Source: Oscillospiraceae bacterium
GTDB taxonomy: Bacteria > Bacillota > Clostridia > Oscillospirales > UBA929
DNA length: 64,000 nucleotides
NCBI GenBank assembly: GCA_031550325.1
Contig: JAVBOR010000030.1
Location: 11,309-75,308 of the forward strand
Reading direction: 5' to 3'
Shown here one piece after another: positions 2,123 to 42,673 of this stretch. How positions within the stretch are numbered: the first letter of the stretch is position 1; each line of letters begins with the position of its first letter. Below the pieces are notes generated by a model. That model was not told where the DNA came from. It saw only the letters and a list, made by a program, of their open reading frames with translations, and did not search any database. The position numbers were made by a program, and so were the translations under genes.

Positions 2123-4798
2123 ATGCGTAACATGAAGAGATTTTTGTCTCTCGCACTCGCGCTCGTTATGGTCTTCTCGCTGGTCATTTCCGCATCGGCG
2201 AAGTCGATTGACGAGTTTGCCGACATCAACCCCGATGTCGACGCCAACGACGCCATGAACGACTATCTCGACGACGGCGACTATTTCCGTGACAGCCTGC
2301 AGATGGCCGTCGACCTCAGCATCCTCAAGGGCGACAACAACAACAACCTCAACCCGCAGGGTTCGGTCACCCGCGCTGAGTTCGTCACCATGCTGTACAA
2401 GTTCATGCATGGCGGCGCCGAGATCGCCGGCGTGTGGACCAACACCGCGTTCGCCGACATCGTGGGCCACTGGGGCGAAAAGTACATCGCCTGGGCCTAT
2501 GGCCAGGGTCTGATCAGCGGAACCAAGGCGCCCACCAACGCCACCTCTAAAGACGGCGTGTTCAGCCCGAACGGCACCATCAGCTACACCCAGGCGCTGC
2601 GCATGACTCTGTCGGCGCTGGGCATCAACGGCACCTACGAAGGCATCGACGCCTACAACTGGGCCAACAAGACCCTTGTCATCGCCACCGAAGGCGACAT
2701 CAACATCGTGCGTGATTTCAACGCCGCCAACAACGCCACCCTGACCCGCGTTGAGTGCGCCGTCATCCTCAACTTCGCGCTTGAGGCCGCCATGCAGGAG
2801 TACACCATGCAGTACAACGGCTCCGGCATGACCTATACCCGCAAGTCCGCCGAGCGCTCCAACGATCTCCTGCTCGCCGGCGTGAAGTACTATGACTATA
2901 CCCGTGTAAGCGGCACCGTTGCCGCCAACGACATAGCTGCCGTCAGCGGCGCCGTCGCCGCCTCGGGCAAGATCCGCATGACCAGTGTCGTCGCCGGCAC
3001 GTTTACCGGATCCCAGACCTATTCGATCGATCTGCCCGTCGAGGCCATTGGCCGTGACGTGTACTTCTACGCGAAGATCAACCAGACCACCGGCGCCGCC
3101 TCGAAAATTTACGGCTCGGTCAACTACACCGATAAAATGGACACCTACTCTGTGGGCGGCCTGACAGTTAGTGGCACAACCCTCGTAAACGGCGACGGCG
3201 ATACTGTTGCCAACAACGCCACGACGGGCACTTACGTCAACTACGCGATTGGCACGGATGCCACGACCGTGCGTAACACTTTTGCCGCCGCCAAAGCCGA
3301 CAACAATGTCCGCCTGATCTTCAAAAATGGCGCCACCGTCGCCACATACGCGTTCTTTGAAGACCTGACCTTCACCCAGATCAGCAAGGTTTCGGGCGGA
3401 AAGGTCACCGCCAAGGCCGTCATGACGACCGCCACTGAGACCAAGTACATCGAAACCAAAGACACCCTGGCCGCCAACGATTACGTCACCATTGCCCCGG
3501 TGGGCAGCGTCTACCTGATCAACAAGGCCACCACACTGAAGGCTCAGGTCAGCCGCACCCGCGACGCCGGCGCCACCTTTGTCATCAACGGCACCAACTA
3601 CTCTAACTACGCGATTACCGGCCTCACCGCGTTTGACCCGGCCGGAAACCTTGCCAAGGACTTCACGTTCTACGTCTTCGGCACGAAAATCGCCAAGGCC
3701 GTGAGCGCTTCGTCCGAGGTTGCCGAAGCTACCCAGTACTGCTACGTTGAGAAGTTCGTTGTGGACTCCAGCGTCATGGGCGACACGTCTGACGTTGTCA
3801 CCGCCCGCGTCTGGTCCCTCAAGGATCCCAAGGGCAAGGGCTATGTCGTCAGCGAAGACAGCACGGGTTATGCCGCCATGGCTAACAAAACCACCACTAC
3901 GGGATACTTCTCCTACACGATTGACGGCGACGGCCTGATCGTTCTTGACACTGCCGCTTCCACTACGAGCAGTGCAGCCACGCAGACGGTGCCCGCCTAT
4001 AACGGCACGTCCTCTATGATTAAACTTCCCATCGGCTCAACAAACACCAAAGAGTTCTACATCGCCGCCAACACCGCGTTCTTCCTGACTGACTCTTCTG
4101 ACGCGGTCGTCGGTGTGCGCAACAAGCCCGTCAAGTACGCCGTGTCCTCCGCGCTGGCTGTTGACAAGGTTAAGACCCTCGCTTCCACCGCAGCGGCTGA
4201 TCAGGTCAGCGGGCTTGACGTCCTGTATTACGCTGTGATGCCGAGCTTTGACGCGGCCTCCAACTTCCAGTATGTCTTCGCGACCGACCACGGCAGCTAT
4301 AACAGTGACAAGACCGTTACCTTCTCGGCCTTTGACGGTACTGTGGTCAAGGATTATGTGTCCGTCGCCGATGTGAAGATCAACGGAACCAAGGCCACCG
4401 CGACCACTAACCTGAAGTTCAAAAACCAGATCATTAAGCTTGACAACGCCACAGGCGAAATCGTTGACATTATCTGGGGCGCCACCAACGCATACACCAG
4501 CAAGACCACCACGACCTACATGAGCTCCGAGTCGACCGGCTACTTCAAGGGCAGAGTCCTCGGCGTCAGCGGCGGCATCATTGGTCTGGGCAACGACGGA
4601 ACCGCCACCGACACAATCTTCCGCAGCGAGTTCTCCAAGGTCAAACTCTATGTCATCCAGGGCACTGATTGCGCAGAGATCACCGATCTGGCTGACTTCA
4701 CGATGGACACCGACAACAACACCTACACCGCGTACTTCAACTGGAACAACTCAGACGCGACTGTCACCGACATCTGGGTTCTCGTTGCAGCCAAATAA
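2123..4798 (+). CDS. S-layer-type surface protein with N-terminal SLH domains
   Basis: AAGGAGG RBS at 2105-2111; signal peptide MRNMKRFLSLALALVMVFSLVISASA; SLH-like segments (FADI...VTRAEFVTMLYKF; FADIVGHWGEKYIAWAYGQGLISG); long Thr/Ala/Asn/Val-rich body typical of S-layer proteins. Confidence 0.75.
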   Translation: MRNMKRFLSLALALVMVFSLVISASAKSIDEFADINPDVDANDAMNDYLDDGDYFRDSLQMAVDLSILKGDNNNNLNPQGSVTRAEFVTMLYKFMHGGAEIAGVWTNTAFADIVGHWGEKYIAWAYGQGLISGTKAPTNATSKDGVFSPNGTISYTQALRMTLSALGINGTYEGIDAYNWANKTLVIATEGDINIVRDFNAANNATLTRVECAVILNFALEAAMQEYTMQYNGSGMTYTRKSAERSNDLLLAGVKYYDYTRVSGTVAANDIAAVSGAVAASGKIRMTSVVAGTFTGSQTYSIDLPVEAIGRDVYFYAKINQTTGAASKIYGSVNYTDKMDTYSVGGLTVSGTTLVNGDGDTVANNATTGTYVNYAIGTDATTVRNTFAAAKADNNVRLIFKNGATVATYAFFEDLTFTQISKVSGGKVTAKAVMTTATETKYIETKDTLAANDYVTIAPVGSVYLINKATTLKAQVSRTRDAGATFVINGTNYSNYAITGLTAFDPAGNLAKDFTFYVFGTKIAKAVSASSEVAEATQYCYVEKFVVDSSVMGDTSDVVTARVWSLKDPKGKGYVVSEDSTGYAAMANKTTTTGYFSYTIDGDGLIVLDTAASTTSSAATQTVPAYNGTSSMIKLPIGSTNTKEFYIAANTAFFLTDSSDAVVGVRNKPVKYAVSSALAVDKVKTLASTAAADQVSGLDVLYYAVMPSFDAASNFQYVFATDHGSYNSDKTVTFSAFDGTVVKDYVSVADVKINGTKATATTNLKFKNQIIKLDNATGEIVDIIWGATNAYTSKTTTTYMSSESTGYFKGRVLGVSGGIIGLGNDGTATDTIFRSEFSKVKLYVIQGTDCAEITDLADFTMDTDNNTYTAYFNWNNSDATVTDIWVLVAAK

Positions 4799-4864: not shown

Positions 4865-4990
4865 CTGTAGACAAAGGCCGCCTCTTCGTTCCTTTGCGCA
4901 AAACCACGTCGAGCCTGACGCCGAAGGCGGCGGGTCCATGCTCGGGCGGGCGGCTCTTCGCTTGGGCGGCTCTTCTTGCGTTTTGCGGGG
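4865..4990. repeat. Intergenic repeat locus R1 (truncated copy of the 209-bp composite: left GTAG end plus class III E hairpin)
   Basis: 4865-4937 CTGTAGACAAAGGCCGCCTCTTCGTTCCTTTGCGCAAAACCACGTCGAGCCTGACGCCGAAGGCGGCGGGTCC matches the first ~73 nt of 35508-35716 almost exactly; possible 3' arm GTTTTGCG near 4980. Confidence 0.85.
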
Positions 4991-5004
4991 GCGCATGGTA
5001 CAAT
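4976..5004 (+). promoter_or_regulatory. Candidate sigma-A promoter for the LRR gene (TTGCGT-17-TGgTACAAT)
   Basis: -35 TTGCGT 4976-4981, 17-nt spacer, extended -10 TGGTACAAT 4996-5004; ~23 nt upstream of the ATG at 5027. Confidence 0.35.
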
Positions 5005-5026
5005 GATTCCCAAAGCAGGTGAAACC

Positions 5027-6739
5027 ATGAAAAAAATTGTGCCATGGGTCATCGCGGTGTGCGTGATCATTGCGCTCGCGGGCGGATGGCTTTTATTTGG
5101 CGGGCGGGCGCTGCAGTGGTACTATACCTCGCAGGCCACGCGCGCCATTGAGGAAAACAGGCCCGAGCGCGCGGCGGAAATGCTGCAGAAGCGCTTGGAT
5201 ATGACGCCCGGGGACGACACGCTGCGGCTGCGCCTGGCCGAAATGCTGGCCGGGATGGGCGCGTTTTCCCGCGCCGAGTATATCCTGCATGAGGGCTTGG
5301 AGGAGGCAGCCGACCCCGTACCGTTTTACGCGGCGCTGAGCGCTGTTTTTGTGACGCAGGACAAGCTGTATGACGCGGTGGCGCTGCTGGACGGCGTTAA
5401 AAACCCGCTCACGGCCGAGAAGCTCTCCGCGCTGCGGCCGGCTGATCCGGTGCCGCAGCCCTTGGGCGGCGTGTATCAGCATCTGCTGGAGGTGTCGGTG
5501 ACCGTGCCGGAGGGCTATAGCTGCTATATCTCCTGGGAGGGGGAGATCCCTTCGATAGAGCGGGATAGGTACACGGAGCCGCTGACGCTTCAGCCGGGGA
5601 TTACGCAGGTCAAGGCCGTCATGGTGGATGAGGCGGGAATAGTGTCTGGCTGGGCGGTTGCCGAGTACAGACTGGAAAATGTGCGGGTGCCGCTTACGTT
5701 TGCCGATCCGATGGTGGAGCGCGACGTGCGCGCTGCCCTGAACAAGCCCGAGGGCGAGCTCTATTCGGACGAGGCGGCGGCGCTGACCGAGCTTCATTCC
5801 GTGGAACCTGCGGCGTACAAGACGCTGAGCGACCTGGAACCGCTGACCGGGCTGACGAAGCTCACGCTGCAGGGGCTTGGCGAGCATTGCGATATTTCGG
5901 TTCTGCCGAAGATGGGCAAGCTGGCGGAGCTACGTCTTCAGAGCATGAGCCTGGACTCGATGGATCTTGAGGTCATCAGCCAAATGCTCTGGCTGCGCGT
6001 CCTCTCACTGCCCGAGAACCAGATGACCATCCTCACGCCCCTGTCGGCACTGACAGAGCTCACAGAGCTCAATCTGAGCAGCAACAGCCTGATGGAGCTG
6101 GAGGATCTGCGCGCTCTGACGGCGCTCACAGGGCTCAATCTGGCCGGAAACGCCGTCCAGGACGTGAGCGTGCTGCGGGAGCTGACAGCGCTTAAGTCGC
6201 TTGATCTGTCGGGAAACCGCATCGTGACGCTCGACGGACTGCAGAACATGAAGGCGCTGACCACGCTGTCGGTGGCGCACAACTATCTGAGCGGGCTCTT
6301 TGAAATACAGGGCCTTACGGCTCTGCAGGAACTGGATATCTCAAGCAACGCGCTGACCTCGCTCTCTGCGCTGAGCGCTCTCACTGCTCTGCGCGTTTTA
6401 AAGGCCCCGGGCAATGAGCTTGAGGCCCTGGAGGCGCTGAGCACGCTTGCGGCGCTCGAGACCCTGGACGTGTCGGGCAATCAGATTGCCGCGCTGACCG
6501 GGCTGGAGTCCCTTACCTCGCTCAGCGAGCTGGAGGCCAGCAAGAACAAGATCACCGGCGTCGAGCCGCTTCGCGGGCTCCCGGCGCTTGCTGTGCTGCG
6601 TCTGGAGAACAACGCCGTTCAGACGCTGCAGCCGCTGAAAGACTGCCCAAAGCTCAAGACGGTGTACGCGTTTGGCAACACGCTGACAGATCCGGTCGAC
6701 GCGTTTTCCGGCACGGGCATCACCTTGTACCGCAACTAA
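5027..6739 (+). CDS. Membrane-anchored leucine-rich-repeat (LRR) surface protein
   Basis: Start moved to MKKIVPWVIAVCVIIALAGG (RBS AGGTGA); N-terminal TM anchor, TPR-like helical region, a beta-rich segment, then more than a dozen tandem ~22-aa LRRs (L..L..L.L..N.I..L..L). Confidence 0.8.
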   Translation: MKKIVPWVIAVCVIIALAGGWLLFGGRALQWYYTSQATRAIEENRPERAAEMLQKRLDMTPGDDTLRLRLAEMLAGMGAFSRAEYILHEGLEEAADPVPFYAALSAVFVTQDKLYDAVALLDGVKNPLTAEKLSALRPADPVPQPLGGVYQHLLEVSVTVPEGYSCYISWEGEIPSIERDRYTEPLTLQPGITQVKAVMVDEAGIVSGWAVAEYRLENVRVPLTFADPMVERDVRAALNKPEGELYSDEAAALTELHSVEPAAYKTLSDLEPLTGLTKLTLQGLGEHCDISVLPKMGKLAELRLQSMSLDSMDLEVISQMLWLRVLSLPENQMTILTPLSALTELTELNLSSNSLMELEDLRALTALTGLNLAGNAVQDVSVLRELTALKSLDLSGNRIVTLDGLQNMKALTTLSVAHNYLSGLFEIQGLTALQELDISSNALTSLSALSALTALRVLKAPGNELEALEALSTLAALETLDVSGNQIAALTGLESLTSLSELEASKNKITGVEPLRGLPALAVLRLENNAVQTLQPLKDCPKLKTVYAFGNTLTDPVDAFSGTGITLYRN

Positions 6740-17217: not shown

Positions 17218-18068
17218 GCATGGATATCGACAAAGAGCTGGTGAAGACGCTTTTGCCTGTGCGTGCGCGAGAGAGCCACAAGGGCGATTTTGGCAGAGTG
17301 CTGGTGCTGGCGGGCAGCGTCGGGTTCACCGGCGCCGCGCGGCTGTGCGCGATGGGCGCTGTGCGCGCGGGCGCTGGCCTTGTCACCGTCGGCACGCCGC
17401 GCAGCTGCTGGCCGATTGTGGCAGCCGGCGCTCCCGAGCCCATGTGCCACCCCTTGCCGGAGGACGAGAGCGGACGCCTCAGCCTGGAGGCCTGGTCGTG
17501 GATCGAACCCGCGCTTCTCCGCAGCGACGTGTGCGTCATCGGGCCGGGACTGGGCCGGTCGGATGACATTGCGCAGCTTGTAGGGCTTGTGCTGAAGGCC
17601 GGGCTTCGGGTTGTTTTGGACGCCGACGGCATAAACGCCTATGACGGTCATATACTGGATTGTCCGTGTGTTCTCACCCCTCACGAGGGAGAGTTTGTGC
17701 GGGCGGGCGGCGATTTGAGCGCCGGGCGGGACGCGGGGGCGCGTGCGTTCGCCGCTAAGACGGGCGGCGTCCTTGTGCTCAAGGGGCGGCACACGCTGGT
17801 GGCCTCCCCTAAAGGGCTGCTGCGCCGCAACACGACCGGGAATCCCGGGCTGGCCAAGGGCGGCAGCGGCGACGTGCTGGCCGGAATGATCGGCGCGCTG
17901 GCCGGGCAGGGCCTGACGATGTTTGACGCAGCCTCGGCGGCGGTCTGGCTGCACGGAGAGGCTGCCGATCACTGCGCGCGGCGTTGGGGGGAGTACGCCA
18001 TGACGCCGTCAGATCTGCTTTTGTCGCTGGCGCGCGTCCTCACAGCCTATAATGGAGGGAAGACATGA
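17214..18068 (+). CDS. nnrD: ADP-dependent NAD(P)H-hydrate dehydratase (YjeF C-terminal/YxkO type)
   Basis: SHKGDFGRVLVLAGS.GFTGAA, TPH.GE, GNPGLAKGGSGDVLAG motifs; dehydratase domain only. Confidence 0.8.
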   Translation: MSMDIDKELVKTLLPVRARESHKGDFGRVLVLAGSVGFTGAARLCAMGAVRAGAGLVTVGTPRSCWPIVAAGAPEPMCHPLPEDESGRLSLEAWSWIEPALLRSDVCVIGPGLGRSDDIAQLVGLVLKAGLRVVLDADGINAYDGHILDCPCVLTPHEGEFVRAGGDLSAGRDAGARAFAAKTGGVLVLKGRHTLVASPKGLLRRNTTGNPGLAKGGSGDVLAGMIGALAGQGLTMFDAASAAVWLHGEAADHCARRWGEYAMTPSDLLLSLARVLTAYNGGKT

Positions 18069-18634
18069 AAAAGCTGGCCCTTGCACTGATGCTGCTTATT
18101 TTGCTCACGGCATGCGGGCAGAAGGAAGGCGAGTCCTCCGAAGATATTCGGGACTACTACCGTTCGCTAGAGCATATCGAGATGACCGTCACGCAGCGCA
18201 CCGACTTCGGCGACCGCGTGCTGGACTTTGAGGTGCTGTACAAATGGCAAAAGGACGGCGCGTGTACGATAGAGACGCTGTCTCCGCAGGCCATTCGCGG
18301 GCTGACGGCCACGCTGAGGGACGATGGCGCGACGCTGGCGTTTGATCAGACCATCGTCGAGCTCGGCGCGCTTCCCGGAACGGGCCTGTCCCCGCTGGAG
18401 GCACTGCCGCTGATGATCGGGCAGTGGAGCGACGGGTACGTCTCGTCGAGCGGCCGGGAAAAGCTGGCCGAGCAGCCGTGTCTGCGCTATACATACAAGA
18501 CCACGTGGAATGAGACTGCGCTCGAGCAGACCGTGTGGTTTGCGCAGGACAGCCGCGCGCCCGTCCTGGCCGAACTTGCGGCCGACGGGCAGGTGATCGT
18601 GCGATGCACGTTTTCCGGAGTAAACCTGACTTGA
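18065..18634 (+). CDS. Lipoprotein, YdcC/LolA-like
   Basis: Lipobox LLTAC|GQ; located between the acpS block and alr as ydcC is in Bacillus subtilis (synteny argument from memory). Confidence 0.5.
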   Translation: MKKLALALMLLILLTACGQKEGESSEDIRDYYRSLEHIEMTVTQRTDFGDRVLDFEVLYKWQKDGACTIETLSPQAIRGLTATLRDDGATLAFDQTIVELGALPGTGLSPLEALPLMIGQWSDGYVSSSGREKLAEQPCLRYTYKTTWNETALEQTVWFAQDSRAPVLAELAADGQVIVRCTFSGVNLT

Positions 18635-20268: not shown

Positions 20269-20358
20269 TACGGCGGCGCAAAGGATTGTTTTTTGACAGT
20301 TGGCGGCGCGGGCGGGAAGCCCGCTTACATAGAAATGGCGCACATAGGAGGGTTTTGT

Positions 20359-20994
20359 ATGGCACATAAGAGGGCGATCATTGGCACCCTGGCGTTTTTG
20401 CTGGTTGCGGTGCTGGCGGTGGGGTACTTTGCCCTTGCCGCCGAGATTGGCGGAAAGGACAACCCTTTGGTCACGCTGAGTTACCTCAGTGGCATTGAGC
20501 CGCAGCTGGAGGCCCAAATTGACCAGATGATCACTCAGCAGACCCAAAAGCAGGCCGATGAGCTGGACGCGAAATACGCGCAGGCGAAGGACTCGCTGCA
20601 GAAGATGATCGACGACTTCTCCGGCGCAAACGCCGGGGCCATCACGTCCGACCCCGCCTTCATGACGGCGGTCGTCAACGCGGTGCTGGCGCAGATGGAT
20701 CCGTCCGGTTCGAGCACGGGCACGCAGCCCGAGACCTTTAAGCGCGTCGACATTCCGAGCGGGAAGACCGTGACGCTGGGCATGGGCAGCATGGCCTTTC
20801 TGCGCAGCGGGGCCGCGAAATGTTATTCAACCGGTTCGCCCGGCCTGATCAATCTGAGCGATGGAACGGCGCTTGAAAACAACAGCGCGCTGGTGAAGAA
20901 CAACCTGTATTCCGTGACGTTTGACAGCGGACGCGGCTTTAAGACTTCCGAGGCTTCCATCGTATTCATCCTTGGTTCGTACTCCATCCAGTAA
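20359..20994 (+). CDS. Hypothetical membrane-anchored protein
   Basis: Start at MAHKRAIIGTLAFLLVAVLAVGYF (TAGGAGGG RBS); N-terminal TM, helical Q/D/K-rich segment, beta-rich C-terminus; no family recognised. Confidence 0.5.
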   Translation: MAHKRAIIGTLAFLLVAVLAVGYFALAAEIGGKDNPLVTLSYLSGIEPQLEAQIDQMITQQTQKQADELDAKYAQAKDSLQKMIDDFSGANAGAITSDPAFMTAVVNAVLAQMDPSGSSTGTQPETFKRVDIPSGKTVTLGMGSMAFLRSGAAKCYSTGSPGLINLSDGTALENNSALVKNNLYSVTFDSGRGFKTSEASIVFILGSYSIQ

Positions 20995-21011
20995 TATTGG
21001 GAGGTTTGGCA

Positions 21012-21944
21012 ATGGCGAAAGCATCTGAGGCGGAAATTCTTCTGGAAAGCGGCACCAATGAATTGGGAATCATGGAATTTACCATCGCGGGCAACATTTT
21101 TGGCATCAACGTCGCCAAGGTCACCGAGATCATGATGTATTCCCCCGTCAGGCCCATGCCCAACTCGCATCCGAACATCGAGGGCGTTTTCAAGCCCCGT
21201 GACGCGATCATCACCGTCATTGATCTGGCCTCCTTTATGGGGCTGCCGCCCTCCGAGAACACCGACCGAGACATGTTTATCATCACAGGCTTTAACAAGA
21301 TGAGCGTCGCGTTCCACGTGCACACGGTCGAGGGCATCCACAGGGTATCCTGGGCCAACATTGAAAAACCGGACAACACCATTTACGGCGGGCAGGAGGG
21401 CCTGGCCACCGGCATCGCCAAAGTGGGGGACAAGCTGATCACCATTGTGGATTTCGAGAAGATTGTGTTCGATATCAGCCCGCAGAGCGGCATTCAGATG
21501 TCTGAGATCAAGGATCTCGGCCCGCGCGAGCGTAGCGAAAAGCCGATTTTTGTGGCAGAGGATTCGCAGCTGCTCAAGCGAATGATTCTCGAAGCGCTGC
21601 ATGAGTCCGGATACGCAAATGTATCGGCGTTTCCCAACGGCGAGGACGCCTGGGTCCGGCTGCAGGAGGTCAGACAGCGCACCATGGCCGGGACGCCGCT
21701 GGAGTCACAGGTGGCCTGCCTGATCACCGACATAGAGATGCCCAAAATGGACGGGCACCGGCTGACAAAGCTCGTCAAAGAGGACGCCATCTTGCAGAAT
21801 ATCCCCGTGGTCATCTTCTCTTCGCTGATTGATGAGGCTATGCGCGTCAAGGGCGAGGCTCTCGGCGCCGACGCCCAGCTGTCCAAGCCCGAAATCGGCA
21901 ACCTTGTGTCTATGGTTGACCGCTGGACGCAGAAAAAAGACTGA
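21012..21944 (+). CDS. cheV: Chemotaxis protein CheV (CheW-like domain plus receiver domain)
   Basis: CheW-like N-terminus (GINVAKVTEIM...VFKPRDAIITVIDL), C-terminal REC (IFVAEDS..., ITDIEMPKMDG, LSKP); GGGAGG RBS before ATG 21012. Confidence 0.8.
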   Translation: MAKASEAEILLESGTNELGIMEFTIAGNIFGINVAKVTEIMMYSPVRPMPNSHPNIEGVFKPRDAIITVIDLASFMGLPPSENTDRDMFIITGFNKMSVAFHVHTVEGIHRVSWANIEKPDNTIYGGQEGLATGIAKVGDKLITIVDFEKIVFDISPQSGIQMSEIKDLGPRERSEKPIFVAEDSQLLKRMILEALHESGYANVSAFPNGEDAWVRLQEVRQRTMAGTPLESQVACLITDIEMPKMDGHRLTKLVKEDAILQNIPVVIFSSLIDEAMRVKGEALGADAQLSKPEIGNLVSMVDRWTQKKD

Positions 21945-22069
21945 CAGCACATTCACGCGGCTTCGCTGAAAGTAGACCCAAACGGGGACTTTTCCGGGCC
22001 TTCGCTTGATGTGGAGGTCCGATTGTTTTTCTCCTCAGAAGGAGAGAGTTAGAGAAAGAGGTGTTTTTA

Positions 22070-23410
22070 TTGAAAAAAAGAGTGTTGTCCCTTGGCCTTG
22101 CGCTGGTGCTGCTGTGCGGACTGTTCGCGCAGACTGCCCTTGCGCTCGGCGTGCAGGCCGAAAAAGCCAAGGCCGTGCAATGGGCCACGGCCCATCCTCA
22201 GACAGCCGGCCTGGGCGATGTCCTCGCGCGGTACTCCCTCGGCATTTCGGGCGTTTCTATTCCCGCGGAGAGCGCTGCCGGAACGGTGACCGCCCTGGCG
22301 TCCAACATTCTCCTGCGCCTGGTGGCCGACAAAAGCGTCGGACAGCTCGCGTATGATCTGGCGATGAAGCAGCTGCCCAATGGCAGTTTTGGGGACGGTC
22401 TCACCGACACGGTCTACGCCGTTCTGGCGCTGAACAAGACGCTGCCCGCCCGCTTTGACTTTGAGAAGGCGCAGGCGTGGATCGCTGCCCAGCAGCTGGC
22501 CGACGGCGGCTTTGCCTACTCCGGCAGCACGGGAGACATCGACATGACCGCCATGGCCCTGCTCGTCTATGAGGGCGACAACACGGGCAAGGCCATCAAC
22601 TTTCTCCAGCGGCAGATGACCGCAAACGGCGGCTACATATCCCCCTGGTCCCCCAAAAAGGAAGAAAACGCATGCTCCGTGGCCACGGTGATTACCGGGC
22701 TGCTGGCGTGCGGCGCGGTGGTTGACGACAAGATGATCGCCAATATGCTCTCGTTCCAGCTGGCCGACGGGTCCTTCTGCTACCAGCTGTCGGACAAGAC
22801 AACAGACGCGTTTGCCACCCAGCAGTGCCTGCTCGCGCTCGGAGAGTTGAGCGCGCAGGAGAGCGTGTACACGCGCATCCCCGCCGCCGAGCTTCCGCTT
22901 TACCGCGACTGGCCGTCGATTGCCGTCTGGGCGCGCTCGGGCGTGACGACCTGCTTTGAGACGGCGCTCATGGTGGGCGACAACCGGCTCAACTACAACC
23001 CGATGCAAAACTTCAACAAGGCGGAGCTTGCCGTGATCATCTCCAAGTTTCTGCCTGAAAATGCCCCGGCAACCGATCCCGGCCTGAAGGACGTCGCGCC
23101 CGGAGCCTGGTACTACACCCATGTCTGCCGCGCCATTGCCGCCGGAGTGCTCAGCGGAAGCGGCGGGCTGTTCCGGCCCGACGTCGCCGTCACGCGCGAG
23201 GAAGTCGCCTACGCCCTGACAAAGCAACTCTCGCTCGCGCCCGGCCCGAAAAAACCAGACGACATCGGCTTGGCCAACCCGGCCTATGTGGACGCCATCA
23301 CGGCTGTGATGGCTGAGAATCTCATGGTGGGCGACGGCAAGACTTTCCGGCCCAAGGAACTGATTACGCGGCAGGAGGTTGCCACTGTCTTTGCCAAACT
23401 GTATGATTAA
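22070..23410 (+). CDS. Secreted prenyltransferase/terpenoid-cyclase-like alpha-alpha barrel repeat protein with three C-terminal SLH domains
   Basis: Signal peptide LKKRVLSLGLALVLLCGLFAQTALA; repeats QLPNGSFGD, QQLADGGFAY, QMTANGGYIS, FQLADGSFCY; C-terminal SLH-like units ending ..TREEVAYAL, ..TRQEVATVFAKLY. TTG 22070 favoured over GTG 22061 by RBS spacing. Confidence 0.7.
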   Translation: MKKRVLSLGLALVLLCGLFAQTALALGVQAEKAKAVQWATAHPQTAGLGDVLARYSLGISGVSIPAESAAGTVTALASNILLRLVADKSVGQLAYDLAMKQLPNGSFGDGLTDTVYAVLALNKTLPARFDFEKAQAWIAAQQLADGGFAYSGSTGDIDMTAMALLVYEGDNTGKAINFLQRQMTANGGYISPWSPKKEENACSVATVITGLLACGAVVDDKMIANMLSFQLADGSFCYQLSDKTTDAFATQQCLLALGELSAQESVYTRIPAAELPLYRDWPSIAVWARSGVTTCFETALMVGDNRLNYNPMQNFNKAELAVIISKFLPENAPATDPGLKDVAPGAWYYTHVCRAIAAGVLSGSGGLFRPDVAVTREEVAYALTKQLSLAPGPKKPDDIGLANPAYVDAITAVMAENLMVGDGKTFRPKELITRQEVATVFAKLYD

Positions 23411-24071
23411 GCGCCTGATACTGCTTGTCTTTGTGCTTTTATGGCTGACGGCGTGCGCATCTTCCCCCTCTGCGCCGAGCGGCCAAAATAAAACAGGCGA
23501 CGTTTCGACGTCGCCTGTTTTGGTCGTACCCGCACCCTCCGTACCGCAGATAGAGCAGTCCTCTGTGCCGACTGAAAACGCGACAGGTGAGAAAGAATCG
23601 CCGCCTCCGGGAGCAGCCTCTCAGGCGCCGCCCTCACCGTCTCCGTCTCCGTCGTCCGTTCGGCCGTCGGCCTCGCCGACTCAGACGCCGACAGCGGCCC
23701 TGTCCCCCAGCCCGGCGGCCGCTTCGGAGCAGCCGGCGCATGTTCTGGTCAAGATCGAAGGGCCGGAGGGGTGGCTGATCGAGGGCGCGACGGTCGCCTG
23801 GACGCAGGACATGACCGCGTATGACGCCATTTTGGAGGCCTGTACGCAGGCCGAGGTGGAGCTTGTCACCACCGGAAGCGGGTCGTATGTCTATATTTCC
23901 TCGGTGGGCGGCTTTGCCGAAAAGAGCGACGGAGTGCTCTCCGGCTGGATTTTTAAGTTCAACGGCGAAATGGCCTCCAAGGGCTGCGGCGCGGTCAAAC
24001 TCGAGGAAAACGACCGTGTCAGCGTGTATTTCACCCGAGATCTGGGCATCGACTGCGCCGACAAGGACTAG
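23403..24071 (+). CDS. Lipoprotein with Pro/Ser-rich linker and C-terminal DUF4430 (transcobalamin-like beta) domain
   Basis: Lipobox LWLTAC|AS; start overlaps the upstream stop; C-terminal ...ISSVGGFAEKSDGVLSGWIFKFNGEMASKGCGAVKLEENDRVSVYF matches my memory of DUF4430. Confidence 0.65.
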   Translation: MIKRLILLVFVLLWLTACASSPSAPSGQNKTGDVSTSPVLVVPAPSVPQIEQSSVPTENATGEKESPPPGAASQAPPSPSPSPSSVRPSASPTQTPTAALSPSPAAASEQPAHVLVKIEGPEGWLIEGATVAWTQDMTAYDAILEACTQAEVELVTTGSGSYVYISSVGGFAEKSDGVLSGWIFKFNGEMASKGCGAVKLEENDRVSVYFTRDLGIDCADKD

Positions 24072-36227: not shown

Positions 36228-39200
36228 CTACTCCAGAGCCAGGGCCTGATCGATGGCGAAGAAATAGACGAGCTTTTCTCCGACCTCCAGCCCGGTCATG
36301 CGCTGTGCGGCGTGGGCGTAAGTCTCCAGCTGCACGCGGTAGTGCTCGGCGCGCGCTGGCGCGCCCTCGGGGCTTATGGAGTCAGTCTTGAAATCCAGCA
36401 CAATCAGCTTGCCGCTTTCGACGAAGAAGCAGTCAATAACGCCCTGCAGCAAAATCTCCTCCCCCATGGCTGTCGTGGCGCCGGTCAGGACGTCGGCGGG
36501 CTCGAGCATGGAAAACTTGCACTCCCTCCAGAGCCTTGTTGCCTTCAGGACGCGCTGGCCCAGGTCGCTCTGAAAGAACAAGGCTATTTTTTCGGGGGAC
36601 ACGGCGTCTGTTTGCTCGGGCGTGAGGATGCGCCGCTTTGCAAGGCGCGACAGCTCGCCCCGGACACCGCCGGCGCTCTGGCAAGCAGCATACGAAATAA
36701 ACTGCATGGCCAGATGGTAGGCCTGCCCGCGCTCCGGCCCCGATAAGCCGCGCCCGCGCGCTGGGCTTTGCGAAAGAAAGGTGCCGGTGCCCTCCCAAAC
36801 CTCAAGATCGGTATAGCGGCCCTTCAGCTGGGTCACCGTCATCTTGGACGGCAGGTCGACCGCGCCGGCGTAAGGGTAGACAAAGGCATCGCGCGCCTGA
36901 ATCGCGTCGCGTTCGGCGCCGGGGGCGGGCGCGGCGGTCAGTGCCGCCGGCGGGGCGGCCAGCCAGTCGGGCTCGGCCACGCCCAGCAGAAGATCCATGA
37001 AGCTGGAAGCCTCACGCAAGCTCTGCGCGGGCGTCGTCTCGCTGCCCAGCATGATCAGCTTGTTCTGCGCGCGCGTCATCGCGACATACAGCAGGCGCAG
37101 CTCTTCGGCCTTGTGCTCGCGCGTGAGCTCCTGCCGCACCGCGTGGTAGGCGGCGGTAGGGTACTCGCACAAGTCGGTGCGCCGCTTCAGGCCGCAGCCG
37201 GTCGTTTCGTGCATCAGGAGCTTGGCGTTCATATCGCGAAGGTTGTACGACCTGCCAAGGTCGGCCAGCACGACAACGGGAAACTCCAGACCTTTGGACC
37301 TGTGAATGGTCATGAGCCTGACGGCGCTGTCCGTGTGCACGCGGGTGCGGGAGAGTGTCTGCCGGTGAAGCCACGGCAGAAAGGCGGCCAGGCCGCTTTC
37401 GTGCGGGCAGGCTTGGGCAAGCTCTAAAAAAGCCATGAGATCGGCCTGGCCCTGTGCGTCAAACTTTGTGTCCAGATCGGTTTGCGCGTAAATACGCGAC
37501 ACCAGCCGCCACACGGGAAGGTCGGGCGCGAGGTAGCGCCACTGGCGCAGCAGAATGAGCAGCCGCTGGCTCTTGAGCTGCGTGTCGGCCAGCAGGCAGT
37601 CGTACAACGACAGCTCCGACACGGCGCGAAGCGACGCCAGCTCCTCGGCAGTAAACGCGAACGCGGGCGAGCGCAGCGCGGCGAGTAGCTGGACGTCGTT
37701 GCGCGGGTTGAGTGTGACCTCCAAAAGCGAGGTGATCGCCCGCACGGCGCCGGACTGTTCGTCCTCGGCAGCGTCGGAGTTTGCGTCCAGACCGGCGTCG
37801 CGCAGCGCCGCCAAATAGGCCGGCGCGCGGTTTTTCAGCGAGCGCAGCAAAATAACGCAGTCCCCCGGGCGGGCAAAACCCGCGTCGATGAGCGCGCGAA
37901 GCCGCGCAGCCACGGCGCGCGCCTGCTGAGCCAGCTTATCGCTCTCGCCTGTGTCGGGCAAGGCGATGAGCTCGACGGCGGGCTCCTGCTGCGGGGGAAA
38001 GCCCAGACCGCTCCTGAGGGGCGGCCCATAGTCCATCTCGGCGTCCGCGCGCGTCATCAGGCGCTCAAGCGTGTGGTTTACGGCCGAGAGAACCTCGGGC
38101 CGCGAGCGGAAGTTGCTGGTCAGATACACCTTGCACGGGCCGGCCGCCGCCTCGCTCCACAGCGCAAACTCGTCGAGCTTGCGCAGAAAGATGGTCGGGT
38201 CGGCGTGCTGGAACCTGTAAATGGACTGGCGCACGTCCCCCACATAGAACACATTGTCCCTGCCGGCGGACAGCGCGTCGATCAGCGCGTCCTGGCGCGC
38301 GTTGACGTCCTGGTACTCGTCGACCAGAATCTCGGCAAAGCGCGCGCTCACGGTCAGCCCTGTTTCGGTCGGGCGGCCGCTCTCGTCGGTGAGCAGGGAG
38401 AGCGCGGCAAGCTCATAGTCGGTGAAGTCGGCCAGCTTGCGCGCCGCCTTCTCCTGCCGGTAGGCCTCGTCAAAGCAATTCACGGCGAAAAAGAGCCCGC
38501 TGAGCACCTCCTGCGTGTCGGCGATGTCGGCAAGATTGTCCTCATGCGTGCAGGAGATGCGCTCGCACAGAGCCCCGACGCCCTTTTTCCAGCCGTCCCG
38601 CTCGGCGCGAAGGCCTTCGGCCTGATCCTTCGCGGCGTCGTCGACGGCTTTAAAGGGCTTGAGCTTGGCAAAGCTCAGCGCGTGAAGCGCCTCAAAGGCT
38701 TTGTCCCAGCCCGCGCCCAGCGCGCCGTCCAGCGCGGTCAGCGCGTCGATATCGCTCAGGAGCGCCGGCGCGTACGCCGTGTACAGCGCGGGATCGTCCA
38801 CGCCCTCCAGGGCGCTTTGCGCTTGGGCGCGCCACTTGGCCAGCTGATGGCGCGCGTCCTCCAGTACGAGCTCTTCCCAGAACTGTACGCGCCTGTCGGA
38901 GGCGCGCAGCTGCTCTGCCCGCCAGCCCGCCGGGCCGCGCATCGTTCGGGTCTTTCGCCAGGTTCTCTCGACAAGCTCCGAAACCGCCCTGTCACCGCGC
39001 ATGTCCACAAAGGCGTCGACAAAGCGCCCGAACTGCGGCAGCCCGCCGCCTTCCAGCTGGTCGTACAGCTCGTCCAGCACGCGGTTCAGGGTGTCGCCGA
39101 ACAGCCCGGCCGCCTCGCTGTCCTCGCAGACCCTGACGTCGGGCGGCAGGACGCTTTGGGCGGCGAACTCGCGCAGCAGCTCGACGCAGTACGCGTGCAG

Positions 39201-39503
39201 CGTGCAAATGCGCGCCGTGTACAGGCGGTTCAGCTGGCGGCGCAGATGGCGGCTATCCGGGTCGGCCTCCATGCGCCCGCGCAGCGCGCGGAGAATGCGC
39301 GCGCGCATCTCCCCGGCGGCGGCGCGCGTATAGGTGATGAGCAAGAAGTCGTCGATGTTGCGCGGGCAACTCTCGTCTGTGAGATAGGCCATCAGCCGCT
39401 CGACAAGCACAAGGGTCTTGCCCGCGCCTGCCGCCGCCGAGACCAAAACGGTGCGGCCGCGCAGCGTGACGGCGGCGTGTTGTTCATCCGTGAGCTCTCT
39501 CAT
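36228..39503 (-). CDS. addA: ATP-dependent helicase/nuclease subunit A (AddA)
   Basis: 1091 aa; UvrD-type motifs VSAAAGAGKT, ILVDEYQDVN, TIHRSKGLEFPVV; C-terminal RecB-type nuclease region (QGVIDCFF...LDFKTD). Confidence 0.9.
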   Translation of the reverse strand: MRELTDEQHAAVTLRGRTVLVSAAAGAGKTLVLVERLMAYLTDESCPRNIDDFLLITYTRAAAGEMRARILRALRGRMEADPDSRHLRRQLNRLYTARICTLHAYCVELLREFAAQSVLPPDVRVCEDSEAAGLFGDTLNRVLDELYDQLEGGGLPQFGRFVDAFVDMRGDRAVSELVERTWRKTRTMRGPAGWRAEQLRASDRRVQFWEELVLEDARHQLAKWRAQAQSALEGVDDPALYTAYAPALLSDIDALTALDGALGAGWDKAFEALHALSFAKLKPFKAVDDAAKDQAEGLRAERDGWKKGVGALCERISCTHEDNLADIADTQEVLSGLFFAVNCFDEAYRQEKAARKLADFTDYELAALSLLTDESGRPTETGLTVSARFAEILVDEYQDVNARQDALIDALSAGRDNVFYVGDVRQSIYRFQHADPTIFLRKLDEFALWSEAAAGPCKVYLTSNFRSRPEVLSAVNHTLERLMTRADAEMDYGPPLRSGLGFPPQQEPAVELIALPDTGESDKLAQQARAVAARLRALIDAGFARPGDCVILLRSLKNRAPAYLAALRDAGLDANSDAAEDEQSGAVRAITSLLEVTLNPRNDVQLLAALRSPAFAFTAEELASLRAVSELSLYDCLLADTQLKSQRLLILLRQWRYLAPDLPVWRLVSRIYAQTDLDTKFDAQGQADLMAFLELAQACPHESGLAAFLPWLHRQTLSRTRVHTDSAVRLMTIHRSKGLEFPVVVLADLGRSYNLRDMNAKLLMHETTGCGLKRRTDLCEYPTAAYHAVRQELTREHKAEELRLLYVAMTRAQNKLIMLGSETTPAQSLREASSFMDLLLGVAEPDWLAAPPAALTAAPAPGAERDAIQARDAFVYPYAGAVDLPSKMTVTQLKGRYTDLEVWEGTGTFLSQSPARGRGLSGPERGQAYHLAMQFISYAACQSAGGVRGELSRLAKRRILTPEQTDAVSPEKIALFFQSDLGQRVLKATRLWRECKFSMLEPADVLTGATTAMGEEILLQGVIDCFFVESGKLIVLDFKTDSISPEGAPARAEHYRVQLETYAHAAQRMTGLEVGEKLVYFFAIDQALALE

Positions 39504-42500
39504 GGCGTATCCCCCTCCCGAAGCGCCTGCCAGAATGACTGAAGCGAAAAGCTCTGCAACGGCGCGTCTTTCTCGCGCGAGGCGTCAAAGTAGCAGCATG
39601 GCGCAAAGTCGCAGTTGTCGCAGGCGCTGCTCTGGCCGCTCTCCCGCACGGGAACGGCGCGAACGTCCCCCCGGATCAGGTCGGAGGCCACCGCGCGCGT
39701 CAGGGCTTCGACGTGACGCCCCAGCCGCGCGAAATCTTCCCGGTCGCCCACCTGAGACCGCTGGTCGAGCTCGCCGCTCTTTTTGCGGTCAAACGGCAGA
39801 AGACCAGCGCCGTCCGGGCCGCTCATCGCCTCCAGCACGGCGTCGTCGGCCAGCAGAAGGCCGCGGCGCTTGAGGCCGGCGGACGGGCCGGGCAGCTGCG
39901 CGCCCGGATGGGACTTTAAGGTGAGAACCTCGTCGCGGGCGGGGACATAGAGCATCCCCGCGGGTTCGATGCGGTCGGCGCCGAACAGCCCGGCCCCCAG
40001 CTTGGCCAGCGTGAACAGATACAGCGGCAGCTGCAGCCCCAGGCCGTGATAGAGCTCCGAGACCGAAAAAATCTTTTTGCCGGTTTTGTAGTCGACAACC
40101 CGAAGATAGAGGGTGCCGTCAGGCCCGCGCCAGCCGTCCACGCGGTCAACCGCGCCCTCGACAAGCGCCGAAAAGCCGCCGGGCAGGCCGTCCACGCGGA
40201 CGGCGGGCAGCTTCCCGCCGCGGTCGGAAAAGCGCAGTTCATAGGCGAGCGGAGAGAACAGGGAAGCTTGCAGCTCGGCCAAAACATCGGCGGCGATGCT
40301 CACCGCCGAGCGGCGCAGCGTGTCGAACAGCCGCGCAAAGCGCCGCGTGTGCCCGGCAAAGCCTTTCAGGACGGTATTCTCGTAGGCGGTCGTATACATA
40401 GCGGCCCAGTCGCGCACCTGTTCGGCGGTCACGTTTGCCGCGCCGCCGGCGAGCTCTGTGTTTCGCCCGGTCTGCTCAAGCATGCCGTGGATAAACGCGC
40501 CGATGTCCAGCGGGGCAAACCCCGGCTGTTCGGTCGGGCGGGCGCGCAGCCCATACTGGCAGAAGTAGGCAAACCGGCAGGTGAACGCGCGCTGGAGTCT
40601 CGTCGCGCTGAAACGCAACTCCGTGCCGTACAGAGACGTGACGGCGTCGGGGGAGAGCGGCTCGCGCAGCTCGGGCGGCGGCGTAAAGGGCCGCACAACC
40701 GGGGGAAGCGCGGTGATCTCCACGCCGCAGAGCGCGCAGGCGCGGCTGAGCACGTCGGCGGGCAGCGCCTTGCCGTCGCCGTCTCTGGAAAAGCTCAGGT
40801 ACAGGGCGTCGGACGGAAGCGTCATGGCGGCATAGAGGTTGAACAACTCGCGCTCCAGCCTCTGCTCGCCGTCCGGCGGCATCTGCAGGTCAAACGCCTC
40901 CAGAACGGCGCGCTCCTCCAGGGACAGCAGCGAGTCGGTGTTCGGCACCATGGGCATCGCGTCGGCGCGCGCGCCGGGCAGAAACACAACGCGGGGCGAA
41001 TGCCGGCGCAGGCGGCCGCACTGGCCGATGCCGACGCGGTCAAGCGCGACCGGAATCGTGCCGACCTGGCAGCCGGACAGCAGCAAGAGCAAAAGATCCA
41101 TAAAGCCGTCCAGGTTCATCGGCGTATCTCCGAGAATCGAGGCGCACTCGTCCAGAGCCTCTACAAAAAGCTCCCAAAGCTGGGCGCACTCGTCGGCCAG
41201 CTTGAGCTCCCCAAGCGACCGAAGCGCCTCGATGCGGCGCTTCAGCGCGCGGTCAACGCGCATTTGCAAAAGGACTTGGAGCAGAAGCTTACTCCAGCCG
41301 GACGCGGTGCGTCCGCCGCGCAGCGCGGACAGCGGCGTGTGGATGAGGGCGCGCATACGGTTGACAAAGATAAGCGCGCGCGTGTCCTCCTCGGTCATCG
41401 TCTCGACATAGCCGCGCGGATGCAGCGTAAACGGTTTTGCCCACTGCGCGCCGTGGGGCCGCCACCGGCGCAGATAGGGCTCAAAGCGGTCAACCTGCTC
41501 GAGCGGCGCGCGGAACAGACCGGTGCGCAGCAGGACAAGCACGTCCTCGCTGCGCCAGCCGTACAGCGTGATGTCGGCGAGGGCGCGCAAAAACTGCGGC
41601 AGAGCTTTGCCGATGACGTCGTCGGTGCTGTCCATAAACACGGGAACGCCCTCGCGCTCAAAAGCCCGCTCAAGAAGCGGGCCGTAGAGGGGCAGGTCGT
41701 TGACGGCCACCTGCATGTCGCGGTAGCGCAGCCCGCCCGCCGCCAGGCGCTGGACTGTCTGGGCGATGACGGCGCACTCGTCCGAGACGGTTTGCGCGCA
41801 CAGCGCAGTGACGGCGCCGCCGCCGTCAACGGACAGCGTGGATCTGTCGAAAAAGTGCGCCTCCAGATGGGCCAGCGCGGGGGCGGAAAAGCGCCTTGGC
41901 TGTGTCAGGACGGTCTGCGTCGCGTCGCCGAGCGCTCTTGTAAGCGCGGCGGCCGTGCGCTGGGCGACCGGGAAGTCCTGACCGTCGGGCAGGCCGCACA
42001 GCGCGCAGAGAATCTGCCCCCGTCCCTGCGAGAACGCGCTCAAAACGTCGATTTCCTGCGGGGTAAACGTGACAAAGCCGTCCAAGAAAAGCCTCTTGTC
42101 CAACGCAAAAAAACTGTGGCGCAGCTTGTCCGCCAGCAGCGTCAGTCTGTCGCGCTTGTCCAGCGGGCCGGAGGCCAGCAGCGCGTTGTAAGAGGCGTAA
42201 ATCAGCGAAAGCTCACGCAATTTCAGCGCGGAGGAGCCCTTGGCCGCGTCTGAGGCCTGATGCAGGGCCTCGGGCGCAATGCCGTAGCATTTACACTCAT
42301 CCACGGTCTGGAGCAGCGAGGCCAAAAACGCGGGCTTGTGGGCGTTTTTGGCCCACAGGCTCAGCTGATCGCGCACCACGTCGACCGCGAGGCGCATGGT
42401 GAGAAGCCGCCCTCCGTCGGAGAGCGGCCGGCGGGCCAGACCGCCCTCCTGTCCAAACACGCGGTCGGCCAGCCGCCCGAACGTGAGCACCTCGGCGTGC

Positions 42501-42673
42501 AGGCAAATGGCCGGGCCGCCGTGCGCCGCCAAAAAACGCTCGCACTCGTGGGAGAAGGGCTCCGGAACAAGCCAGATCAGGCCCTCCTCGCCGTGCGCCG
42601 CGCGCGCGCAGATTTCATTAACGATTGTTGTCGTCTTGCCGCTTCCGGCGCGGCCCCAGAGAAGGTGCAGCAA
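39500..42673 (-). CDS. addB: ATP-dependent helicase/nuclease subunit B (AddB)
   Basis: GRAGSGKT P-loop near the N-terminus; C-terminal nuclease with Cys cluster (CDNCDFAPCC); ATGA overlap with addA. Start placed at TTG 42673 (GGGAGG RBS); the ORF-track extension to 42772 looks non-coding. Confidence 0.85.
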   Translation of the reverse strand: MLHLLWGRAGSGKTTTIVNEICARAAHGEEGLIWLVPEPFSHECERFLAAHGGPAICLHAEVLTFGRLADRVFGQEGGLARRPLSDGGRLLTMRLAVDVVRDQLSLWAKNAHKPAFLASLLQTVDECKCYGIAPEALHQASDAAKGSSALKLRELSLIYASYNALLASGPLDKRDRLTLLADKLRHSFFALDKRLFLDGFVTFTPQEIDVLSAFSQGRGQILCALCGLPDGQDFPVAQRTAAALTRALGDATQTVLTQPRRFSAPALAHLEAHFFDRSTLSVDGGGAVTALCAQTVSDECAVIAQTVQRLAAGGLRYRDMQVAVNDLPLYGPLLERAFEREGVPVFMDSTDDVIGKALPQFLRALADITLYGWRSEDVLVLLRTGLFRAPLEQVDRFEPYLRRWRPHGAQWAKPFTLHPRGYVETMTEEDTRALIFVNRMRALIHTPLSALRGGRTASGWSKLLLQVLLQMRVDRALKRRIEALRSLGELKLADECAQLWELFVEALDECASILGDTPMNLDGFMDLLLLLLSGCQVGTIPVALDRVGIGQCGRLRRHSPRVVFLPGARADAMPMVPNTDSLLSLEERAVLEAFDLQMPPDGEQRLERELFNLYAAMTLPSDALYLSFSRDGDGKALPADVLSRACALCGVEITALPPVVRPFTPPPELREPLSPDAVTSLYGTELRFSATRLQRAFTCRFAYFCQYGLRARPTEQPGFAPLDIGAFIHGMLEQTGRNTELAGGAANVTAEQVRDWAAMYTTAYENTVLKGFAGHTRRFARLFDTLRRSAVSIAADVLAELQASLFSPLAYELRFSDRGGKLPAVRVDGLPGGFSALVEGAVDRVDGWRGPDGTLYLRVVDYKTGKKIFSVSELYHGLGLQLPLYLFTLAKLGAGLFGADRIEPAGMLYVPARDEVLTLKSHPGAQLPGPSAGLKRRGLLLADDAVLEAMSGPDGAGLLPFDRKKSGELDQRSQVGDREDFARLGRHVEALTRAVASDLIRGDVRAVPVRESGQSSACDNCDFAPCCYFDASREKDAPLQSFSLQSFWQALREGDTP

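Follow-up and report, generated by a model that had tools for sequence, protein, structure and literature searches.

The gene pair

Two overlapping genes on the forward strand, at positions 22070 to 24071 of the 64-kb window (the whole stretch of Oscillospiraceae bacterium contig JAVBOR010000030.1 analysed here), encode a secreted alpha/alpha-toroid protein with wall-binding SLH repeats (gene 1) and a lipoprotein with a C-terminal DUF4430 domain (gene 2). A prediction made earlier from the sequence alone, hereafter the original prediction, had described the products as two separately anchored halves of a transcobalamin-like fold that could capture a corrinoid. The results below are best explained if genes 1 and 2 constitute a single small operon, with each gene supplying one half of a bacterial surface binder of the transcobalamin type. 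The features of the locus are as follows, with the basis of each call in brackets.

22070..23410, plus strand: gene 1, encoding a secreted alpha/alpha-toroid protein that ends in three SLH repeats (open reading frame, Pfam)
22070..22144, plus strand: putative Sec signal peptide of gene 1, MKKRVLSLGLALVLLCGLFAQTALA, followed by LGVQ (read from the translation)
22145..22921, plus strand: alpha/alpha toroid domain, an alpha6/alpha6 barrel of 12 helices containing QxxxDGGF-type repeats and DIDMTA (Pfam, HMMER, AlphaFold)
22901..23407, plus strand: three SLH repeats, non-covalent anchor to cell-wall polymer (Pfam SLH, alignment with 6bt4, SLH profile)
23403..24071, plus strand: gene 2, lipoprotein with DUF4430/SLBB domain, 222 residues from ATG (open reading frame, sequence, match to database protein P0001)
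23403..23456, plus strand: putative lipoprotein signal peptide of gene 2, MIKRLILLVFVLLWLTAC, with lipobox L-T-A-C and Cys18 codon at 23454-23456 (translation)
23457..23777, plus strand: low-complexity Pro/Ser/Ala/Thr-rich tether of about 107 residues (composition)
23727..24062, plus strand: DUF4430/SLBB beta-grasp domain of the transcobalamin C-terminal type (PF14478, family profile)
21995..22031, plus strand: terminator-like hairpin and T-run, located downstream of cheV (stop at 21944) and ahead of gene 1 (consensus scan)

Two start codons are available to gene 1, GTG 22061 (449 residues) and TTG 22070 (446 residues), with a stop at 23410. The database protein P0004 (446 residues, 100% identical to gene 1 over 446 residues) starts at TTG 22070, and AGAGG lies 8 nucleotides upstream of this codon. 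The N-terminus comprises a basic N-region, a hydrophobic core and an A-L-A cleavage motif (..FAQTALA, then LGVQ), suggestive of a Sec signal peptide. All four repeat motifs quoted in the original prediction (QLPNGSFGD, QQLADGGFAY, QMTANGGYIS and FQLADGSFCY) are present in the translation of the domain of approximately 260 residues that follows, for which Pfam reports Prenyltrans at an E-value of 1e-5 (25.5 bits, just below the gathering cut-off of 26.5 bits) and also TED_complement. There was no match in the Pfam scan of gene 1 to Cobalamin_bind (PF01122), the alpha-domain family of the eukaryotic cobalamin carriers. The C-terminal anchor was recovered by Pfam SLH (E 3.7e-20) and by an SLH profile over 22901-23407 (E 4e-49), and residues 289-446 align with residues 33-194 of the Bacillus anthracis Sap SLH module (PDB 6bt4, E 6e-7), an alignment that spans the whole three-repeat module and indicates that the SLH repeats of gene 1 are one wall-binding module.

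Gene 2 runs from ATG 23403 to TAG 24071 and starts, in a different frame, inside the last codons of gene 1, which gives the 8-nucleotide overlap (ATGATTAA) originally described. The database annotation P0001 (226 residues, 100% identical) begins 12 nucleotides earlier, at TTG 23391, and the called genes overlap by 20 nucleotides in both a related locus, L001, and L025, a second contig with the same protein. Such an overlap would suit translational coupling of the two genes. The L-T-A-C lipobox points to a lipid-anchored product, and the orthologue P0002 has L-A-S-C at the matching position. Between the lipobox and the C-terminal domain, Pro, Ser, Ala and Thr make up 60% of 107 residues, with a similar linker in P0002. 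Residues 138-211 match Pfam PF14478 (DUF4430) with an E-value of 3.6e-13 (50.2 bits against a cut-off of 23.8 bits), and a custom DUF4430 family profile gave an envelope of 23727-24062 at E 6e-33. The domain searches proposed with the original prediction therefore recovered the toroid, the three SLH repeats and DUF4430 alike, and the sequence features described there are confirmed in full.

The hairpin preceding gene 1 was found by consensus scan and consists of an 11-pair stem followed by ATTGTTTTTC; visual inspection of the intergenic sequences of L001 and L003, which are not conserved, shows similar hairpins. This suggests that the gene pair is transcribed apart from cheV. Gene 2 ends 20 nucleotides from a convergent major facilitator superfamily (MFS) transporter gene and so, with the hairpin on the 5' side of gene 1, the predicted transcription unit comprises genes 1 and 2 alone.

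Pairing of toroid and DUF4430 domains across the family

A word-indexed homology search with gene 2 returned 3 proteins, and an exhaustive HMMER search of 1.84 billion cluster representatives, with the toroid domain as query, was used instead, yielding 984 homologous cluster representatives at E <= 1e-3. All fetched proteins were annotated with custom profiles of the three domains (toroid, DUF4430 and SLH). DUF4430 was found in the same chain in 106 of the 211 fetched toroid proteins, SLH in 114 and both in 69. The toroid is followed by DUF4430 within 70 residues in 62 cases, the same alpha-then-beta order as in transcobalamin. The smallest such fusion, P0060, has 427 residues and is itself a lipoprotein, and many other family proteins are giant SLH proteins with multiple toroid and DUF4430 units. 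The split arrangement of a toroid-SLH protein and a DUF4430 lipoprotein is repeated in L001, L003, L004 and L005 (42-51% toroid identity), three of which are labelled as Oscillospiraceae metagenome-assembled genomes (MAGs) and all of which have an overlapping gene pair with a Pro/Ser-rich tether. Owing to the number of fusions (106/211) and the recurrent split pairs, the pairing is judged, on sequence grounds, to be systematic rather than the product of chance.

Toroid-only genes of approximately 370 codons were also observed, at L013 7518-8633, L016 7434-8633 and L019 7530-8633, in Clostridia and Oscillospiraceae MAGs. There is no DUF4430, ECF (energy-coupling factor) transporter or riboswitch within 8 kb of these genes, and they represent another type of orphan.

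Linkage to cobalamin riboswitches and ECF transporters

Related loci were collected by using 8 close toroid sequences to scan a single genome of each GTDB species, which gave 22 loci, with others obtained from protein look-ups; they were annotated with the custom profiles and the ECF proteins of L002. The window together with L001, L003, L004 and L005 is referred to here as the orphan clade. Toroid/DUF4430 genes, fused or split, adjoin genes for CbiQ/EcfT, a fused EcfAA' ATPase and an ECF S component at 15 of the 22 non-orphan loci. Adjacency to an ECF transporter is hence usual in the family, not obligatory. In L011 (Peptococcaceae) a split pair of toroid-SLH and DUF4430 proteins, exactly as in the window, is followed by the transporter. 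The S component of L008, the one tested, matches chain A of PDB 6FNP (E 1.8e-11), whose length of 182 residues points to CbrT. The 6FNP structure is the ECF-CbrT complex of Lactobacillus delbrueckii, in which CbrT is a characterised vitamin B12/cobinamide S component (PMC5997447).

Scanning of approximately 336 kb with the Rfam Cobalamin model (gathering score 31.5) revealed a cobalamin riboswitch in 11/22 non-orphan loci (L006, L007, L008, L010, L012, L014, L018, L021, L023, L024 and L026), with scores of 40-129 bits. Each of the 11 precedes its operon in the same orientation as the module, and there were none elsewhere in the approximately 336 kb. The cultured isolate Bacillus kwashiorkori (L026) has the order riboswitch, DUF4430-toroid fusion, second DUF4430 protein, CbiQ, EcfAA' and S component. 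A further protein, P0191 (L027 742-2334), combines an ECF S-component-like membrane domain (residues 29-180, with a match just under the Pfam cut-off) with a toroid (residues 359-472), and a gene for a PduO-type cobalamin adenosyltransferase lies 1.3 kb downstream of it. Riboswitch linkage, ECF adjacency and the CbrT-like L008 S component, taken together, identify the toroid/DUF4430 family as an extracellular accessory of a B12-regulated ECF importer with, in the case tested, a CbrT-like S component. The neighbourhood survey advocated in the original prediction was therefore informative at the level of the family, with riboswitches in half of the non-orphan loci and a transporter apparently of CbrT type in 15 of 22.

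Two extra conserved genes adjoin the toroid-DUF4430 gene in riboswitch-controlled relatives (L007 2467-3557, L008 6394-7488, L018 1830-2893, L023 1405-1692 and L014 6728-7645). The first encodes a protein of approximately 100 residues with a weak HNH_repeat match and the second a secreted protein or lipoprotein of approximately 230-300 residues with a weak CarboxypepD_reg match; both are possible further accessories in the operon for B12 uptake.

To compare the orphan clade with the remainder of the family, columns at least 80% conserved in the riboswitch/ECF-linked members were taken as reference. Identical residues were found in all five orphans at 14 of the 21 conserved toroid columns and 10 of the 18 conserved DUF4430 columns, and the remaining differences in conserved columns are mostly conservative. 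By this alignment the orphan clade appears to retain the family signature. Two Gln-to-hydrophobic changes had been considered as markers of a new specificity and were rejected, one being a one-residue alignment shift and the other, Q-to-L, falling at a position that is variable in riboswitch-linked members.

In all five orphan loci the gene immediately preceding the pair is cheV (CheW plus receiver, CheV-type; window 20997-21944, L001 2078-3013, L003 6573-7523, L004 6760-7764 and L005 218-1147), the sole neighbour conserved across them, the remaining flanking genes being variable. An alignment of the region between cheV and gene 1 from the five loci revealed no conserved leader or RNA element. 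The linkage is treated as synteny, since terminator-like hairpins and non-conserved spacers part cheV from the pair.

Fold models and remote similarity

The mature toroid joined to the DUF4430 domain was modelled with AlphaFold in two runs, using alignments of natural fusions with 17 and 46 rows. Mean predicted local distance difference test (pLDDT) values were 89.2 and 88.3, and predicted template modelling (pTM) scores 0.69 and 0.71, respectively. The models comprise twelve helices and a beta-grasp-like sheet, with pLDDT of approximately 89 for the toroid and above 90 for DUF4430. In Foldseek searches of the PDB with both models, ranks 1-15 were occupied by intrinsic factor, transcobalamin and haptocorrin, at E-values of 1.5e-9 to 1e-7 and with 360-440 aligned columns extending over both domains. 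The next matches covered the barrel only and were terpene cyclases and prenyltransferase beta subunits (TMq of approximately 0.47 to the Rab geranylgeranyltransferase beta subunit and squalene-hopene cyclase, SHC). The alpha-alpha toroid expected from the repeats of gene 1 is thus borne out by 984 homologues and a 12-helix model, and the structural comparison suggested with the original prediction returned the mammalian cobalamin carriers as the best matches of the modelled pair.

At the sequence level, a profile including DUF4430 matched residues 293-388 of the beta domain of intrinsic factor (E 2e-3) and the beta domain of transcobalamin (E 2e-2). The deeper 46-row alignment still did not place the two domains in the closed arrangement seen in transcobalamin. 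In these models, domain folds and domain order match those of the cobalamin carriers, and the closed ligand sandwich is not reproduced.

The catalytic motif of class II cyclases such as SHC is DxDD. The DIDMTA stretch of gene 1 aligns on the cyclase motif DVDDTA, with the third Asp replaced by Met. A cyclase-like enzymatic role was considered and rejected given a single barrel of approximately 260 residues, DxDM in place of DxDD, and a secreted, SLH-anchored protein.

Proposed function and competing explanations

The evidence that the two genes encode separate transcobalamin-like halves, as originally proposed, comprises the domain searches, the natural fusions of the same domains elsewhere, and the ranking of intrinsic factor, transcobalamin and haptocorrin as top structural matches. 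The gene pair very probably belongs to the family of toroid plus SLBB surface binders. In the favoured mechanism the toroid protein is exported and its three SLH repeats keep it in the cell wall, and the DUF4430 (SLBB beta-grasp) protein is lipid-anchored to the membrane and reaches outward on its flexible tether of approximately 100 residues. The proposed complex of the two halves would clamp one corrinoid (B12, another cobamide or cobinamide) between a face of the toroid and the beta-grasp domain, a proposal made by analogy to transcobalamin, intrinsic factor and the fused bacterial proteins. The long tether could allow the lipoprotein half to move between wall layer and membrane and to pass the ligand to an importer, which in relatives is the dedicated CbrT-type ECF transporter next door and in this case would be encoded elsewhere in the source genome. 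By homology with the riboswitch-linked members the ligand of the orphan copy would be a corrinoid, and a corrinoid-capture function for the window copy itself is favoured by somewhat better than even chances.

Several observations weigh against this interpretation. As the original prediction had noted, there is neither a B12 riboswitch nor a B12 transporter nearby: no Rfam family reached its gathering score anywhere in the 64-kb window, and therefore no cobalamin riboswitch, and a permissive scan of the leader (21600-22300, E <= 10) gave no riboswitch-like match and only a chance-level hit to ATPC (E 9). No ECF, BtuFCD/Btu, cobamide-related or B12-dependent gene was found among the scanned open reading frames of the window, where the only hit was a generic ATP-binding cassette (ABC) ATPase-like frame at 60370-61143. 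The four closest relatives (L001, L003, L004 and L005) likewise have no ECF genes or riboswitch within flanks of approximately 8 kb. The suggestion of corrinoid capture is supported through the family, by its linkage to cobalamin riboswitches and CbrT-type ECF transporters, and finds no such local signal in the window or its nearest relatives. Of the structural and sequence evidence, the modelled pair superimposes on intrinsic factor, transcobalamin and haptocorrin with TM-scores of only 0.31-0.43 and a root-mean-square deviation of approximately 20 A, values that pertain to an artificial fusion modelled without ligand, and the junction between the domains is of low confidence (pLDDT below 50, with pTM of approximately 0.7). 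The sequence profile of the toroid is nearest to SHC/prenyltransferase repeats (E 1e-23) and does not detect the transcobalamin alpha domain, which was found by Foldseek; the likeness of the toroid to the cobalamin carriers is for this reason at the level of fold only. The Gln conserved by the family in the DxDxTAMxxQ motif is replaced by Leu in the orphan clade. Lastly, experiments on a split pair have been reported once, for Lactobacillus sakei, and the effect described there concerns the uptake of haem instead of B12 (bioRxiv 10.1101/864751).

The last two points bear most directly on the main rival explanation, namely that the same two-part clamp serves another tetrapyrrole such as haem or a porphyrin, and that the lost riboswitch and CbrT-type transporter reflect a change of ligand. 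Deletion of L. sakei lsa1836-1840, which encode an ECF transporter and split beta and alpha proteins, lowered haem uptake, and the S component of this system is reported to be without B12-binding residues (bioRxiv 10.1101/864751). The absence of a B12 regulatory signal from the orphan clade would also fit, as would the replacement of a conserved polar Gln by Leu beside the DxDxT motif. However, the binding evidence in L. sakei consists of docking only, the orphans keep the family residue at most of the conserved columns, the same Gln is also replaced in the riboswitch-linked L006 (Val) and L014 (Ala), and no haem-uptake or haem-degradation genes turned up among the scanned open reading frames of the window, so that a switch to another tetrapyrrole is considered unlikely. 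A wall-associated pair unrelated to tetrapyrroles, for example one binding or processing an isoprenoid, a lipid-linked wall precursor or a glycan, with a terpene-cyclase-like barrel and DUF4430 as a generic soluble-ligand-binding module, is considered quite unlikely. Such a role would account for a toroid sequence closest to SHC repeats with its DxDxTA stretch aligned on DVDDTA, the context of the window locus is uninformative in this respect, and the passages of Burroughs et al. 2007 (PMC1796856) on this superfamily allow that some SLBB proteins may scavenge other metabolites. Set against this are the single barrel, where a class II cyclase would require two in a beta-gamma unit, the Met at the third Asp of DxDD (DIDMTA), the secretion of the protein, and the conservation of the same motifs in homologues under cobalamin riboswitches, which fits binding in a B12 system rather than catalysis.

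Two further explanations concern the relationship of the genes to their neighbours and to each other. The presence of cheV directly upstream of the pair in all five loci, amid otherwise differing flanking genes, could potentially indicate a surface ligand sensor tied to chemotaxis, but terminator-like hairpins and non-conserved DNA lie between cheV and gene 1, Pfam scans show no signalling domain or membrane-spanning transducer in either protein, and inherited synteny among five related Oscillospiraceae-like MAGs suffices to explain the linkage; a sensory role is accordingly rated very unlikely. That genes 1 and 2 are adjacent incidentally and act independently is strongly disfavoured and the least probable of the explanations entertained. 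The models do not dock the domains with confidence and the complex is a proposal, but the coding sequences overlap by 8 nucleotides from ATG 23403, gene calls overlap in L001 too, the pair is kept in all five orphan loci, and the domains are fused in 106/211 family proteins.

A more elaborate version of the corrinoid-binding interpretation, regarded as speculative and rather unlikely, is that the orphan clade shed its riboswitch and ECF transporter and that the pair became an autonomous, B12-unregulated, wall-spanning relay or reservoir, possibly with changed ligand specificity. The SLH-held toroid would then capture or store a corrinoid or other tetrapyrrole in the wall, and the beta domain of the lipoprotein would shuttle the ligand on its tether of approximately 100 residues to a general transporter. 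Such a system would be a Gram-positive counterpart of Bacteroides BtuG/BtuH/BtuJ, built from the ancestor of animal transcobalamin.

Relation to known systems

The transcobalamin-like surface binder proposed here is a correct rediscovery of a published concept rather than a new one, since both the family and a split pair had already been described. The SLBB superfamily, with a transcobalamin-like clade, was defined by Burroughs, Balaji, Iyer and Aravind (2007), who described bacterial surface proteins combining toroid and SLBB domains, encoded in CbiQ/CbiO operons and predicted to scavenge B12 or its precursors (PMC1796856). The relevant passages also report signal peptides, attachment to the cell surface and operons that include another extracellular SLBB protein, observe that carriers mostly do not have B12 biosynthesis, and conclude that animals obtained transcobalamin from Gram-positive bacteria (PMC1796856). 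The window pair shares with that clade the same two domains, the signal peptides and the surface anchoring. The clade is, in those passages, generally encoded with CbiO-like and CbiQ-like genes, of which there are none near the window pair, and the combination of SLH anchoring with a lipoprotein partner is not mentioned in them. The published split pair is that of L. sakei, Lsa1839 (beta-like) and Lsa1840 (alpha-like), beside the ECF proteins Lsa1836-1838 (bioRxiv 10.1101/864751, a 2019 preprint). Compared by description, it is divided into alpha and beta proteins like the window pair, yet it lies inside an ECF operon whereas the window has no such transporter. The literature searched contained no biochemical evidence that a bacterial family member binds cobamides. 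What is newly added here is the riboswitch statistic, the CbrT-type identity of one linked S component and the orphan, doubly anchored clade.

The mammalian carriers transcobalamin, intrinsic factor and haptocorrin (PDB 2BB5, 2PMV and 4KKI) have, as does the window pair, an alpha6/alpha6 barrel and a DUF4430-type beta-grasp domain, in the same order as the fused bacterial relatives. They differ from it in being single, soluble, unanchored chains, as opposed to two anchored proteins from two genes, and in an alpha domain that belongs to Pfam Cobalamin_bind, with identities to the window proteins of approximately 13-16%. The S component of L008 is homologous to chain A of ECF-CbrT (6FNP), whereas the window has no CbrT, EcfT or dedicated EcfA; ECF-CbrT itself was characterised without extracellular accessory proteins (PMC5997447).

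The role proposed for the family is analogous to that of BtuG and BtuH in Bacteroides. BtuG is a beta-propeller. BtuG and BtuH provide surface, high-affinity capture of cobamides ahead of a transporter (PMC10404256, PMC8941943), and act at the Gram-negative outer membrane with BtuB. B12 binders related to BtuH belong to DUF4465 (PMC13398666), which neither window protein matched in the Pfam scan, and no homology to BtuH-type binders was found.

If the family does bind cobamides, it would be a Gram-positive answer to the surface piracy of B12 that has so far been worked out only in Bacteroides, and an extant relative of the ancestral form that gave rise to the transcobalamin, intrinsic factor and haptocorrin of animals. 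The survey strengthens the 2007 prediction through the riboswitches in 11 of 22 related loci and the CbrT-like S component in the one locus tested. Transporters of this kind are linked to the Cbr group in the ECF classification reported by Rodionov and colleagues in 2009, which the paper on CbrT cites. The riboswitch-controlled operon of the cultured B. kwashiorkori (L026) is a better experimental entry than the orphan copy. The one addition made by the window copy is that an Oscillospiraceae-like clade keeps the split, doubly anchored pair with neither a transporter nor B12 regulation at the locus.

Other features of the window

The neighbours of the pair in the window are acpS, nnrD, alr, mazF, cheV, AddAB, a glycolysis operon and genes for the MFS transporter, a flavin mononucleotide (FMN) reductase, an HD protein, a multidrug and toxic compound extrusion (MATE) pump and a sigma factor. 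Two tandem paralogues on the minus strand (43153-45072 and 45414-47222) encode RCC1-repeat beta-propellers with C-terminal SLH domains, and an 891-residue protein at 2123-4798 has an N-terminal SLH domain, indicating that SLH anchoring is in wide use in the source organism. The AddA/AddB helicase-nuclease genes (36228-42772, minus strand) occupy the stretch of highest G+C content, 0.67-0.68 compared with approximately 0.60 elsewhere. A 233-residue protein with a hydrophobic N-terminal segment (20293-20994, plus strand) and a 189-residue lipoprotein (18065-18634, plus strand) have no Pfam match, the latter being kept beside alr/nnrD in L005. Two large leucine-rich-repeat proteins are encoded on the plus strand at 4976-6739 and 56437-59100, the first also with a tetratricopeptide repeat (TPR) segment, and are possibly further surface or adhesion proteins.

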